From the NCBI GenBank assembly GCA_964458315.1, contig CAYWIK010000002.1, forward strand, positions 6,433 to 70,432: a stretch of 64,000 nt of DNA, given 5' to 3'. The notes beneath the pieces were generated by a model. It was given only the letters and a program-made list of their open reading frames with translations, made no database searches and was not told the origin of the DNA. This DNA comes from an uncultured Spirochaetales bacterium. Lineage in GTDB: Bacteria; Spirochaetota; Spirochaetia; SPDA01; CAZSGZ01. This document shows, piece after piece, positions 24,754 to 33,768 of this stretch. Made by a program: the position numbers and the translations under genes. The stretch's first letter is position 1, and the number at the start of each line of letters is the position of its first letter.

Positions 24754-26664
24754 ATGAAAAAAGCCATCATTCTCTATTTCATTTTGCTCAGCCTTGTTGT
24801 TGTCTTCGCGTGTGGAGTTTTTTCCTGTGCAGGTTCCGCGGAAACGGGAAAGGAATCGGCGGGAACAAGTTATGCATTGAAAGAAATCGAACCCCAGGAA
24901 GGCCGAAAAAAACCGGCCGAATCAACTGCGGATGAAAAGGCATCCCCGGCAAAGCCTTCCGTCGAAAGCCCCGGCGCCGAATCGGAAAAAAAGACAAAAG
25001 ACGGCACCCGCGGGGCGGAAGCGGAAGAACCTGACGGAGAAATGTCTTTTATGATGGAAGATGAAGAATCTTCTGAAGGCGGCACAAAACCGCGGGATCC
25101 ATCAGGCAGCCGCGGTACGCGGGATAAGGTTCCTTCAGCCTCGGGTCTCAAAGCGGGTTTTGCAGACGACAATAAACAGTACGGCTACTTTGTCGAGTTT
25201 TTAGAAGAATACAGCTACGCGCCTCACCTTCCTCTGCCGGTCGAAGAGCGCATCATCCTGCAGGTAAAAGACCGTGATGAAAAACCGGTTCCGAATGCTG
25301 ATATTCTCATCGGCGCCGGAGGGCGCGGGGAGCGCGGGAAAACAATGGCGGACGGAAGTTTTCTCTTTTTCCCTTCCCTCTATCCGGACAGCATCGACTC
25401 CTTCAACATCACCGTGCGGGCTTTTCAGCAGGAAAAACGGATAACCGTCCCCAGGTCCGGGGAGCGAATCCAAACAGTCACGTACGATATCCCGAGATAT
25501 ATTAAAAAGCCGATTCCCATCGATATCCTCTTTATCTTCGACACAACAGGCAGCATGGGAGACGAGATCGACCGGCTCAAGACCACCATCGAATTGATCC
25601 ATATTAACCTCACCAATTTATCAATCCGCCCGAAGGTCCGCTTTGGAATGGTACTCTACAAAGACATCGGCGACGAATACCGCACGAAGGTGCTTCCCCT
25701 CACCGCGGATTTGGAAGAGTTTCGGGAATCCCTCGATCTGGTCGAGGCGTCCGGCGGAGGGGATACTCCCGAGGACCTGCAGGCGGCATTAGAAGACGCA
25801 GTAACCCGTATCGCCTGGGACCCTGAGGGAATACGGCTGGGCTTTATCATTACCGACGCCCCGCCCCACCTCGACTACGGACAGGAATATACCTATGTGG
25901 ACGCGGCTAAGGAGGCAAAGGAAAAGGGCATTAAGTTTTTCTCCGTGGGAACGGGGGGGCTCGATATTTCCGGGGAATACGTGCTGCGGCAAATTTCTCA
26001 ATTCACCTCCGGTAAGTATATCTTTCTCACCTACGGCGAAACCGGAGAAAGTGAAGGCGGAAGGCCAGGAGCGGTCAGCCATCATACGGGAAGCAATTTC
26101 CAAACCGACAAACTGGAGGCGATCATTATACGGTTTGCCAAAGAGGAATTGAGCAATCTGACGGACGAACTAATCGAAGAAGAAGAACCCTACTTTTCGG
26201 CCCAAAAAATTGACGAAGAGGAACGGGAAAAGACCTTGAGCACACTCTTTTCTATGGCCTTAGACCAGCTTCTCGACTATTCGACATTCCGTATAGAAGA
26301 GGGGACACCTTCAGTTTTGCTGCCGCTCATCTCTCAGAAAGATGGATATGAAATCGATGCGGAGTACTTCACCGAGCAGCTCATGCGGCAGGCGATCCAA
26401 AACGGCCGTTTCCGGCTGGTAGAGCGGCAGGATCTGCAGAGCATACTCGACGAACTCAAGCTGCAGCTCTCGGGTCTGACCGATAATACCCAAGCAGCCA
26501 AGGTTGGAGAACTCATGCATGCCGACCTCATGATCGGCGGCACCCTCTATAAACGGGAGGAAACCTTTGAATTATTTCTTAAATTATTACGGGTTGAATC
26601 GGGAGAGATCTTAAGTGTTACTAAAGCACGTATTGATACACGGTTGGGACTTTCGGGCAATTAG
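24754..26664 (+). CDS. von Willebrand factor A (VWA) domain lipoprotein with a C-terminal CsgG/LpoB-like domain
   Basis: Lipobox VVFAC; MIDAS motif DTTGSMG, downstream TDAPPH; C-terminus (VLLPLISQKDG...RFRLVERQDLQSILDEL...ADLMIGGTL) resembles the CsgG/LpoB/TolB-N fold; GGAGG RBS. Confidence 0.75.
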   Translation: MKKAIILYFILLSLVVVFACGVFSCAGSAETGKESAGTSYALKEIEPQEGRKKPAESTADEKASPAKPSVESPGAESEKKTKDGTRGAEAEEPDGEMSFMMEDEESSEGGTKPRDPSGSRGTRDKVPSASGLKAGFADDNKQYGYFVEFLEEYSYAPHLPLPVEERIILQVKDRDEKPVPNADILIGAGGRGERGKTMADGSFLFFPSLYPDSIDSFNITVRAFQQEKRITVPRSGERIQTVTYDIPRYIKKPIPIDILFIFDTTGSMGDEIDRLKTTIELIHINLTNLSIRPKVRFGMVLYKDIGDEYRTKVLPLTADLEEFRESLDLVEASGGGDTPEDLQAALEDAVTRIAWDPEGIRLGFIITDAPPHLDYGQEYTYVDAAKEAKEKGIKFFSVGTGGLDISGEYVLRQISQFTSGKYIFLTYGETGESEGGRPGAVSHHTGSNFQTDKLEAIIIRFAKEELSNLTDELIEEEEPYFSAQKIDEEEREKTLSTLFSMALDQLLDYSTFRIEEGTPSVLLPLISQKDGYEIDAEYFTEQLMRQAIQNGRFRLVERQDLQSILDELKLQLSGLTDNTQAAKVGELMHADLMIGGTLYKREETFELFLKLLRVESGEILSVTKARIDTRLGLSGN

Positions 26665-26675
26665 AAAAATCTGCC

Positions 26676-31451: not shown

Positions 31452-31952
31452 TTAAAACTCAAGGACCGCGGGAAAAGTTGCAATACTCTCGCCCCGGGCG
31501 ATAGAGCGGAAATAGAGAAACCTCTCCAAAAACTTATCAATAAACCGGCACGGGGTTTCGAGTTCTACAGGCAGGGAAAAGAACACCGACCATTTGTTTT
31601 CATCCCGGAAATAAAGAACAACTCTTTCTTCCCGCTTAATCCGGTAGAGCGTGCGTTCGGGGCATTCGAAGGGTAACCAGGAATCGGACCGGACGATTTC
31701 TTCCTCGGAAAAGTAGATGATTATCTTTTTATTTCGATATTCATATTCTCCGTAAAATACCGGAATAGCATTTGGGTAGAGAAAAGGGATTCCTTTTCTG
31801 ATAAGCGGACCCTTGAGAAGTACTCCCAGCTCCTGTTCCTGTTCCTGTTCCTGTTCCTGTTCCTGCGCGAAAAGTGAACCGAGTCCTGCGGTTCCGGCGA
31901 TTCCGGAGGCAAGTAGTAATGTGCAGACCGTAAATAAAAACGATTTATTCAA
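31452..31952 (-). CDS. hypothetical secreted protein with a (Gln-Glu)6 repeat
   Basis: Signal-peptide-like N-terminus (NKSFLFTVCTLLLASGIAGTAG), the QEQEQEQEQEQE tract, then a conserved-looking C-terminus. Start tentatively placed at the TTG 2 nt after the glmS stop; the ORF as listed extends to 31988. Confidence 0.5.
   Translation of the reverse strand: MNKSFLFTVCTLLLASGIAGTAGLGSLFAQEQEQEQEQEQELGVLLKGPLIRKGIPFLYPNAIPVFYGEYEYRNKKIIIYFSEEEIVRSDSWLPFECPERTLYRIKREERVVLYFRDENKWSVFFSLPVELETPCRFIDKFLERFLYFRSIARGESIATFPAVLEF
31831..31866. repeat. hexanucleotide tandem repeat (TCCTGT)x5 plus TCCTGC, in-frame within a CDS
   Basis: Directly visible perfect tandem repeat; encodes (QE)6 on the minus strand. 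Confidence 0.9.
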
Positions 31953-33768
31953 CCGTAACGCTCTTAGCGAGGTTCCTCGGCTGGTCAACGTCCCTCCCCA
32001 GCTTCAAGGCGGAGTAATAGGCGAAAAGCTGCAGCGGCACAACCATAAGAAAAGGATACATGATTTCATCCGCCCTGGGCACATAAAAGACATCATCCGC
32101 AAGCTCTCCGACTTCATGGTCCCCTTCGACCGCAAGCGCGAGAACCTTGCCGTTTCTCGCCTTTACCTCCTTGAGCGTGGAGATCACCTTGTCCCGTAAC
32201 GCGTCGTCCGGAACGAGAAAAAAACTGGGGGTGCGATCATTTATAAGGGCAATCGGCCCGTGTTTTATCTCCGCGGCGCTGTATCCTTCCGCGTGGATGT
32301 AGGCGATTTCTTTAAGCTTTAACGCGCCTTCTAAAGCAATCGGATAATTGATCCCCCTGCCCAAAAAGAGAAAATCTTCGGCGGAACAGTATTTCTCCGC
32401 TAAAGCCTTGAGCTGGTCCTTCTTTTCCAAAATCTCCCCTACCTGGTCGGGAAGCAACTCCATATCTTTCACCATCCGGATCCCGTCGGTATAGGACATG
32501 TGCCGCATCCGGGCCATAAGAAGGGTGAAAATGTAAAAAACGGCAAGCTGGGAGGTAAACGCTTTGGTGGACGCCACGGCAATCTCGGGCCCTGAGTGGA
32601 TATAGACCCCCCCGTCGGATTTCCGTGCAATGGTAGAGCCGACTACATTGACGATCCCTAATACCGTCGCGCCTTTTCGCTGCAGTTCCCTCATCGCGAA
32701 AAGCGTGTCCGCCGTCTCCCCGGACTGGGAAATGGCAAAATAGAGAGAGTTACGCTCGACAATCGGATTTTTGTACCGCACCTCCGAAGAAAGCTCCATG
32801 CAGCAGGGGATCCGGGCCAATCGTTCGAGAAGATATGCCGCCGTCATACCTGCATAGCTCGATGTGCCTGCCGCAATGACTTTTATTCGTTCAATATTGA
32901 GAAGTTCTTTGCTGGTCAGATTGAGGCCGCCGAGATGGCCTGTTGCCAGTTCCCGGTCGAGGCGCCCCCGCATGGCCCGGGCGATGGACTCCTTCTGTTC
33001 GTGGATTTCTTTTTCCATGAAGTGAGAAAACCCGCTCTTTTCGATCTCTTCGAGCTCCCATCCGATGAGCTCTACATGCTTGCTGATCGATTTTTCGGTA
33101 AGATCGAAGGTGTCGTAATGGTCCTGTGTGACAACGATGATCTCCCCGTCTTCCAAATAGACCGCCTGTTTCGTGTAGGCGAGCATGGCAGTCACGTCCG
33201 AGGCGAGAAACATCTCATCGTCGCCGATCCCTAAGACCAGAGGGCTGCCGTTCCTGGCGCCCACGATTTTCCCCGGTTCGTCCGAATGGATGCAGGCAAT
33301 ACCGTAGGTGCCTTTGAGCATTAAAACCGCTTCTTTGACCGCTTTTTCGAGACATCCGTCGTAATAACTGGAAATAAGGTGCGCGATAACTTCGCTGTCC
33401 GTTTCGGTTTTAAATTCATAACCCTCCTGTTCCAGCTTTTCTTTGAGGAGGGTGAAATTTTCGATAATCCCGTTATGCACGATTGCAACTTTCCCGGTAC
33501 CGTCGGTATGGGGATGAGCATTGATATCGTTTACTTCGCCGTGGGTTGCCCATCTGGTATGGCCGATCCCAAAATGCCCGGGGATAACCTCCGGCAGGAC
33601 AGACCTGAGGTCCTTGATTTTTCCTTTCCGTTTGATAAGCTGCAGACCGTTTTCCGAACCGATACAGATTCCCGCACTGTCATATCCCCTGTATTCGAGA
33701 CGTTTTAAACCTTCGACCAAGATGCCGGCCGCGGGACGATCACCGATATACCCTACAATTCCGCACAT
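31945..33768 (-). CDS. glmS: glutamine--fructose-6-phosphate aminotransferase
   Basis: N-terminal MCGIVGY (Ntn catalytic Cys), two SIS domains, 607 aa. Confidence 0.95.
   Translation of the reverse strand: MCGIVGYIGDRPAAGILVEGLKRLEYRGYDSAGICIGSENGLQLIKRKGKIKDLRSVLPEVIPGHFGIGHTRWATHGEVNDINAHPHTDGTGKVAIVHNGIIENFTLLKEKLEQEGYEFKTETDSEVIAHLISSYYDGCLEKAVKEAVLMLKGTYGIACIHSDEPGKIVGARNGSPLVLGIGDDEMFLASDVTAMLAYTKQAVYLEDGEIIVVTQDHYDTFDLTEKSISKHVELIGWELEEIEKSGFSHFMEKEIHEQKESIARAMRGRLDRELATGHLGGLNLTSKELLNIERIKVIAAGTSSYAGMTAAYLLERLARIPCCMELSSEVRYKNPIVERNSLYFAISQSGETADTLFAMRELQRKGATVLGIVNVVGSTIARKSDGGVYIHSGPEIAVASTKAFTSQLAVFYIFTLLMARMRHMSYTDGIRMVKDMELLPDQVGEILEKKDQLKALAEKYCSAEDFLFLGRGINYPIALEGALKLKEIAYIHAEGYSAAEIKHGPIALINDRTPSFFLVPDDALRDKVISTLKEVKARNGKVLALAVEGDHEVGELADDVFYVPRADEIMYPFLMVVPLQLFAYYSALKLGRDVDQPRNLAKSVTVE

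Follow-up and report, generated by a model that had tools for sequence, protein, structure and literature searches.

The DNA considered here is a 64,000-nucleotide (nt) stretch, hereafter the window, from an uncultured Spirochaetales bacterium (GCA_964458315.1, contig CAYWIK010000002.1); all positions are window positions. It contains a run of closely spaced genes (Table 1) encoding two exported VWA-domain proteins, a large cytoplasmic protein (U670), two small cysteine-containing proteins (Zn82 and Cys103), a small tetratricopeptide repeat (TPR) lipoprotein (TPR130), a zinc-ribbon NUDIX hydrolase, and a secreted protein with a (QE)6 tract (QE178). A first-pass annotation had proposed that these eight genes form one linked, uncharacterized sensing or defense system. 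Every open reading frame (ORF) that it listed was found where it had placed it.

Table 1. Genes and sites of the locus, in window coordinates (aa, amino acids; pI, isoelectric point).
Feature	Position	Strand	Remarks
CapA/PGA_cap-like lipoprotein	23335..24714	+	Pfam PF09587, 1.1e-48
VWA-LpoB/CsgG-like lipoprotein, 636 aa	24754..26664	+	Signal peptide with Cys lipobox; DTTGSMG; Pfam matches
U670, cytoplasmic protein predicted to be all-helical, 659 aa	26676..28655	-	Homolog-supported start; longest ORF to 28688 = 670 aa
Zn82, basic zinc-ribbon protein (CPNC...CSSC), 82 aa	28660..28908	-	pI 9.9
Promoter-like site TTGACG-18 nt-TG-TAATAT	28926-28955	+	Consensus match only
Cys103, basic cytoplasmic protein, 103 aa	28980..29291	+	pI 9.3; first gene of Cys103-TPR(-NUDIX) operon
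TPR130, TPR lipoprotein, 130 aa	29307..29699	+	Lipobox FVGC; matches N-terminal half of BamD
Zinc-ribbon NUDIX hydrolase, 183 aa	29696..30247	+	Longest ORF from 29642; Pfam NUDIX 72.6 bits
VWA370, secreted, 370 aa	30273..31385	-	Signal peptide; N-terminal domain without named type; C-terminal VWA (DTTKSM)
QE178, secreted, with (QE)6 tract, 178 aa	31452..31988	-	Signal peptide; directly downstream of glmS
glmS (glutamine-fructose-6-phosphate aminotransferase)	31945..33768	-	Canonical GlmS translation; heads the unit ending in VWA370

Gene by gene, much of the first-pass description was borne out. The first VWA protein combines its DTTGSMG motif with a CsgG/LpoB-like C-terminus, with Pfam scores above cut-off; the second VWA protein and the (QE)6 protein are secreted, as judged from their signal peptides, with the DTTKSM motif and the repeat both seen; and the small TPR protein is a lipoprotein. 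The divergent Cys-rich ORF does have promoter-like hexamers and a ribosome-binding site (AAGGAG) upstream, and the core proteins U670, Zn82, Cys103, and QE178 match no named family in Pfam or NCBIfam.

These genes fall into four putative transcription units. The first (forward) would run through trpB2, the 86-aa ORF sm86, and the CapA-like gene to the VWA lipoprotein gene; the second (reverse) would comprise Zn82 followed by U670; the third (forward) Cys103, TPR130, and NUDIX; and the fourth (reverse) glmS, QE178, and VWA370, its end convergent on the third. Junctions are tight throughout: the VWA lipoprotein gene and U670 converge with 11 nt between them, Zn82 and Cys103 diverge from a 71-nt spacer, NUDIX and VWA370 converge across 25 nt, and Cys103 and TPR130 are separated by 15 nt. 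Our analysis suggests that four transcription units of the core chromosome, each with its own inheritance, likely meet in this interval, rather than forming one functional system.

Gene neighborhoods in other spirochetes argue most directly for this reading. We used tblastn, jackhmmer, and all-against-all clustering to compare the window proteins with loci (numbered L001 onward), including those of 58 GTDB spirochete genomes with a U670 homolog, found with a 12-sequence alignment. In this gene-neighborhood test, set beforehand, the proposed core was scattered without conserved synteny: gene order was kept in two of the 58 genomes (L001 and L003), along with the flanks trpB2, glmS, and the CRP-like and TP_1001-like genes. 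Because the housekeeping flanks are conserved too in order-keeping relatives, this conservation reflects general synteny and not a mobile module. The VWA lipoprotein gene lies near U670 in 5/58 genomes (L001 and L003, plus L002, L005, and L007), and across all loci its homologs adjoin U670 only in these five and in L059-L061.

The right-hand genes have a different and wider distribution. Among 80 metagenomic loci with Cys103, the TPR lipoprotein gene directly follows it in 71 of the 73 with room for it, and a convergent VWA370 comes next in 22 of the 39 with room; in the other loci, the TPR gene mostly borders directly on QE178 and glmS, the latter present in 31/80. NUDIX follows the TPR gene in five metagenomic loci, and U670 or Zn82 lies beside Cys103 in only two of the 80. 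Loci L062-L068 likewise have VWA370 pointing toward the TPR gene, and in L062-L067, which represent three genomic contexts, the Cys103-TPR-VWA370 trio has different flanks and lacks U670, Zn82, and the VWA lipoprotein. On the complete Marispirochaeta chromosome (OY763414.1), some 45 kb separate the trio (2.222-2.235 Mb) from U670 (about 2.18 Mb). What stands of the claimed linked cluster is thus the step from Cys103 to the TPR gene, sometimes with NUDIX and often with a convergent VWA370; U670, Zn82, and the VWA lipoprotein drop out of it.

Taken together, these distributions suggest a history in which the third and fourth units would be an old syntenic block across Spirochaetales, while the first and second would have come to lie beside it only in this lineage. 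The absence of thyX here may be one contributing change. A thyX gene, identified only by its RHR...S motif, is the convergent downstream neighbor of U670 in 15 loci of different clades and lies between U670 and the VWA lipoprotein gene in L002 (4562-5401) and L005 (4910-5743); in the window it is absent from that position.

The composition of the window is likewise that of ordinary chromosome. GC content is flat with no compositional island, the flanks are housekeeping genes, and a repeat search of the window found no flanking repeats or mobile-element borders. An Rfam scan of the whole window gave no matches, so no riboswitch accompanies any of these genes. Scanning the eight proteins against PADLOC-DB 2.0 left seven without a match, the NUDIX protein matching PDC-S07, a generic Nudix model, and a PHROGs scan returned nothing except generic NUDIX, TPR, and LpoB-fold matches. 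The locus is an ordinary core-chromosome neighborhood rich in exported proteins.

If all eight genes did form one multi-protein sensing or defense system, with the VWA proteins as sensors and U670 and its zinc ribbon at the center, one would point to the tight packing and small spacers, to the several products without a known family, and to the conservation of the whole order in L001, L003, L059-L061, L071, and L072. However, the relatives that keep this order also keep the trpB2 and glmS flanks, at least 50 of the 58 genomes lack these neighbors around U670, and the Cys103-TPR-VWA370 block occurs without U670, Zn82, or the VWA lipoprotein, with the two parts far apart in Marispirochaeta. The genes are split among four putative transcription units on alternating strands, and in the nearest relatives the NUDIX gene has decayed or is missing. 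Nor do the proteins resemble a defense module: PADLOC offers no defense component beyond the generic NUDIX-domain match, and both VWA proteins are exported and periplasmic, and so are not cytoplasmic conflict-system VWA proteins. With flat GC content and housekeeping flanks besides, a single system appears very improbable, and as a candidate new system the locus does not hold up. A looser alternative is an envelope-biogenesis district, in which the CapA-like and VWA-LpoB-like lipoproteins, TPR130 (as a short BamD, see below), VWA370, QE178, and GlmS would act in related processes with U670 and Zn82 as bystanders. Signal peptides or lipoboxes on five products, the LpoB/CsgG-fold and BamD-like domains, the role of GlmS in feeding UDP-N-acetylglucosamine synthesis, and the wide conservation of a Cys103-TPR-(VWA370)-QE178-glmS block all fit such a theme. 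Yet VWA370 is missing from 17 of the 39 loci that keep the rest, the VWA lipoprotein lies away from the block in L062-L068, and exported proteins are common in any spirochete chromosome, so the theme may be due to chance; we consider this alternative unlikely.

Several points nevertheless weigh against four independent units. The units were deduced from strand and spacing. Close relatives (eight loci, U670 identity 38-97%) keep the whole arrangement, which leaves room for a lineage-specific functional link, and six products (the CapA-like lipoprotein, the two VWA proteins, the BamD-like protein, QE178, and GlmS) are exported or envelope-related, which could reflect a loose functional theme. 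The roles proposed below for U670, Zn82, and Cys103 are inferences.

With the locus read as four adjoining units, two leads are left, the Cys103 and U670 families; both merit modest follow-up, and neither is very surprising on present evidence. Cys103 lacks an export signal and has five invariant cysteines (C22xxC25xxC28, C46, and C74) within an 85-residue core. It has at least 796 homologs (identity 59-88%), none with a family name, and is about as conserved as GlmS in the same loci (58-76% vs 65-77% identity). Relative to a sister contig of 69% identity, 27 of 39 substitutions fall at third codon positions, a bias that supports a coding ORF. A lenient Pfam scan of 24 family members and a search of PDB sequences with the family profile gave chance matches only. 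This near-invariant basic protein probably binds zinc or an iron-sulfur cluster and may serve in regulation or in nucleic-acid binding in the cytoplasm.

The promoter-like site upstream of Cys103 and the ribosome-binding site, 6 nt before the ATG, together span 28926..28974. As a sequence match alone the promoter is uninformative, since the region holds five such sites compared with 6.8 in shuffled sequences and is not enriched; it is plausible because it is located inside the 71-nt divergent spacer between Zn82 and Cys103.

The product of the next gene, TPR130, has a lipoprotein signal peptide with a lipobox cysteine (MKKYCILFITLIPLLFFVGC), and a comparable lipobox occurs within the first 45 residues in most of 71 homologs, several of which have a doubtful start. 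Residues 7-104 align with positions 4-102 of the 239-position BamD model TIGR03302 (E 1.2e-11). The BamD model recognized each of the 33 family members tested, a count that no other family equaled, and gave the lowest E-value (8.3e-14); among natural proteins in the PDB, the family profile matched BamD best (9pxg_D, 4.4e-9), ahead of CpoB. TPR130 ends at residue 130 and lacks the C-terminal TPR half, where proteobacterial BamD binds BamC and BamE. The same C-terminal truncation is documented for Borrelia BamD, BB0324 (PMC3356241): in Borrelia burgdorferi this protein is the truncated BamD of the spirochetal β-barrel assembly machinery (BAM) complex (PMC3356241, PMC4377024), an outer-membrane lipoprotein docking on BamA (PMC3356241). 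TPR130 resembles it as a lipoprotein of about 14 kDa aligned over nearly its full length to the first ~100 residues of BamD, lipobox included, a likeness known through BamD models.

These data suggest that TPR130 is most likely a spirochetal short form of BamD (TIGR03302/PRK10866), an assignment in which we have moderate confidence. By analogy with BB0324, it would dock on BamA as an outer-membrane lipoprotein. Weighing against the assignment, the TIGR03302 score (44.6 bits) is below the curated cut-off of 81.4, the match rests on a generic TPR fold, and CpoB/YbgF, the second-best family, was matched by 31 of the 33 members. From published primer coordinates and the B31 gene order, bb0324 is probably preceded by bb0323 and not by a gene like Cys103. 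Spirochete outer-membrane biogenesis is poorly understood, and the near-constant placement of a ~100-aa five-cysteine protein directly upstream of a truncated BamD-like lipoprotein offers a directly testable lead.

U670, the second lead, was described earlier as a 670-aa protein without recognizable family whose start is overlapped by a zinc-ribbon ORF. The first part stands: U670 has no Pfam or NCBIfam match at E<=0.1 and no PADLOC or PHROG match. The overlap exists only with the longest reading of the ORF. Translation probably starts at 28655, Met12 of that reading, because all 27 aligned homologs begin there and the closest relative is 659 aa long; this start leaves a 4-nt gap after Zn82. 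We found 80 homologs, all spirochetal where an organism is named, and the family has 396 representatives among 1.84 billion proteins; judged by these homologs, it is restricted to spirochetes. Its members share the N-terminal motif YEPGEL..TR..LG...LGGEIGVE.

Structure prediction, which the first-pass annotation had suggested for U670 and the small proteins, was partly informative. The AlphaFold2 model of U670 is an all-helical, compact multi-helix body (mean predicted local distance difference test score, pLDDT, 79.6), and a fold search with it yielded no PDB match and no solved structural relative. The Cys103 model (pLDDT 44) was unusable, was left out of the fold search, and gave no lead. 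A candidate membrane helix in U670 (hydropathy peak KD19 1.71) was dismissed: judged by reading the sequence, the peak probably lies on the conserved VLxxILxELFxGxR helix, a part that is modeled with high confidence.

Zn82 and U670 appear to be translated together, with an RBS-like GAAGGAA within the last codons of Zn82, ahead of U670, and the pair retained in 8/8 close relatives. Zn82 is 63-74% identical in L001, L003, L059, and L060, keeps its position in L061, L071, and L072, and has 31 of 53 substitutions at third codon positions relative to the same sister contig, which again supports coding. In jackhmmer searches no copy was found in the other 50+ U670 loci, which limits Zn82 to the clade of these seven loci. 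The proposed coupling of zinc ribbon and large protein thus stands as a local arrangement, confined to a narrow clade. Zn82 was also considered as a remnant of the DUF2804 or metallo-β-lactamase (MBL)-fold gene that precedes U670 elsewhere (see below), to which it has no similarity.

The relatives of U670 hint at its role. About one third of full-length family members (57/175) have a C-terminal extension, with weak GGDEF-fold matches in several; a GG[DE]EF motif was found in none of the 57, and the U670 of the window has no GGDEF domain (PF00990). The strongest conserved partnership of the family is with DUF2804 (PF10974): the gene lies directly upstream of U670, on the same strand and with a gap of ~25 nt, in 33 of the 58 genomes (among L012-L058), most of them labeled Treponema or Spirochaetaceae, with T. 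primitia and Treponema sp. OMZ 840 among them. The literature on DUF2804 was uninformative, and the gene is absent upstream of U670 in the window. In 10/58 genomes (Marispirochaeta and allies) an MBL-fold gene lies upstream instead, in most cases with genes for an HDOD protein and a large TPR protein before it.

In six of the loci (L017, L019, L025, L026, L029, and L031) these genes form a four-gene string of large TPR (~780-900 aa), HDOD, MBL-fold, and long-form U670 with a degenerate GGDEF region; in L005 the contig end truncates the first gene, and in L007 that gene was not clustered. This string may be a candidate signaling operon and a hint at the ancestral role of U670.

Our best guess, from sequence features of the family, is that U670 would act as a signaling or adaptor scaffold, possibly linked to cyclic di-GMP: about a third of its relatives bear a degenerate GGDEF-fold extension, and some relatives are encoded downstream of HDOD and MBL-fold proteins. 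Within this lineage, a small, translationally coupled zinc-ribbon partner, Zn82, would have been gained. The likeness to degenerate GGDEF/HDOD-associated signaling modules lies in those 57 relatives and in the HDOD protein encoded two genes upstream in 10 loci; U670 of the window differs from degenerate GGDEF proteins in having no GGDEF domain and a 650-aa helical body without known domain or solved fold. A spirochete-confined family of ~650 aa with a confident helical model, no structural relatives, and a recurrent fusion to a dead GGDEF may be an unexplored signaling component.

An identity of U670 with CfpA, the treponemal cytoplasmic filament protein, was also considered. CfpA has ~678 aa in T. 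pallidum and is cytoplasmic and spirochete-restricted, so the two proteins are similar in size, location, and distribution. It is described as a spirochete-specific protein of 79 kDa, and the three published T. pallidum tryptic peptides (PMC6248270) gave chance-level matches only (E>1) against 255 U670 family members, including the T. maltophilum homolog, although three peptides make a weak test. Moreover, no U670 homolog bears the name CfpA in any source checked, and the U670 model shows many helices packed into a compact body, unlike the coiled coil of a filament protein. We rejected this identity, which is extremely improbable, on the unmatched peptides with the weakness of that test in mind.

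A more ambitious reading of both leads is doubtful. Cys103 would be an undescribed zinc- or iron-sulfur-binding protein functionally tied to the spirochetal short BamD, possibly a regulator through which the redox or metal state of the cytoplasm would act on the assembly of outer-membrane proteins; U670 and Zn82, for their part, would form a new-fold, spirochete-specific signaling scaffold descended from a degenerate-GGDEF protein.

NUDIX, the third gene of the Cys103 operon, is accessory and often lost, and the loci compared show this loss at several stages. The ATG at 29696 and the TPR130 TGA share an ATGA overlap, and in the NUDIX product a CxxC...CxxC ribbon at the N-terminus precedes the Nudix box. 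Ribbon and overlap were as first described; the label NudC-like was not upheld. The NAD(+) diphosphatase model NF001299 aligns across both ribbon and Nudix box, as in NudC-type hydrolases, but scores 35.5 bits against a cut-off of 158, and the gene is dispensable in close relatives. By eye, the NudC-specific motif SQPWPFPxS is absent after the Nudix box. The gene is missing from L001 and L003 and is a three-frame pseudogene in L059 (8519-9014; U670 69% identical), while intact copies (identity 40-50%) directly follow the TPR gene in L078, L081, L131, L139, and L144.

The VWA lipoprotein consists of a lipobox, an acidic low-complexity linker, a weak beta-sandwich match, the VWA domain, and a C-terminal LpoB/CsgG-fold domain. 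Pfam scores exceed the cut-offs for the VWA domain models (PF00092 and PF25106; VWA_4 48.8 bits, VWA 41.3 bits), and in the last ~90 residues for LpoB (35.1 vs 22.3) and CsgG (37.0 vs 20.8). Only such domain-level models were passed: the LpoB equivalog TIGR02722 gave 37.7 bits against 110.55. The likeness to LpoB, the PBP1B activator, and to CsgG is therefore one of fold, and here the domain is the C-terminal part of a 636-aa VWA protein. We infer a membrane-anchored periplasmic protein that binds a ligand through its VWA metal site.

VWA370, the last gene of the GlmS unit, encodes a VWA domain paralogous to that of the lipoprotein (32% identity over 117 aa, E=1e-14) that scores just below the Pfam VWA_4 cut-off (26.9 vs 27 bits). 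The best 120 homologs listed are 55-100% identical over most of the length of VWA370. Like the BatA/BatB proteins of spirochetes and Bacteroides and the TssR-type VWA lipoproteins, both window VWA proteins combine an export signal with a D-x-T-x-S motif resembling a metal-ion-dependent adhesion site. Matches to TssR_VWA and Leptospira BatA are weak and sub-threshold, however (13.1 bits vs a cut-off of 380 for BatA, NF047508), and neither Bat operon partners nor a MoxR ATPase lie nearby. Neither the pairing of VWA with an LpoB/CsgG fold nor the VWA370 N-terminal domain has a named counterpart.

The start of QE178 overlaps the glmS stop; at the DNA level, its (QE)6 tract is a (CTGTTC)n repeat (31826-31867). 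A homolog follows glmS in L001, L003, L059, L066, and L067; QE178 is present in 33/80 metagenomic loci and adjoins glmS wherever a locus holds both. GlmS is 81-95% identical in sister loci, and its homologs carry Pfam GATase and SIS domains. Beside glmS, a divergent pair at 33840-35576 encodes a 227-aa cyclic nucleotide-binding CRP-like regulator and a 342-aa exported protein whose homologs carry Pfam PF26342, the second domain of Treponema pallidum TP_1001. This pair lies beside glmS also in L059, L066, L068, and at least 11 metagenomic loci.

The CapA-like gene, outside the interval noted earlier, precedes the VWA lipoprotein gene by 39 nt, in the same orientation and the same putative transcription unit; the pair is retained in L001, L002, L059, and L061. 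Directly after trpB2, the 86-aa basic ORF at 23177-23437 (+) has four cysteines and no family match. It looks like a real small gene, with identities of 72-73% in L059 and L061, 55% in L001, and 44% in L002. In its long form, read from a TTG, the CapA-like ORF overlaps this gene, and CapA translation therefore probably begins further in, at a Met ahead of the LAGC lipobox.

Elsewhere in the window, two small overlapping ORFs of 98 and 132 aa (49776-50467, forward strand) resemble a toxin-antitoxin pair, judged from the ORF list only; the 132-aa ORF begins MNVVLDACAAVEIV and is PIN-domain-like by eye.

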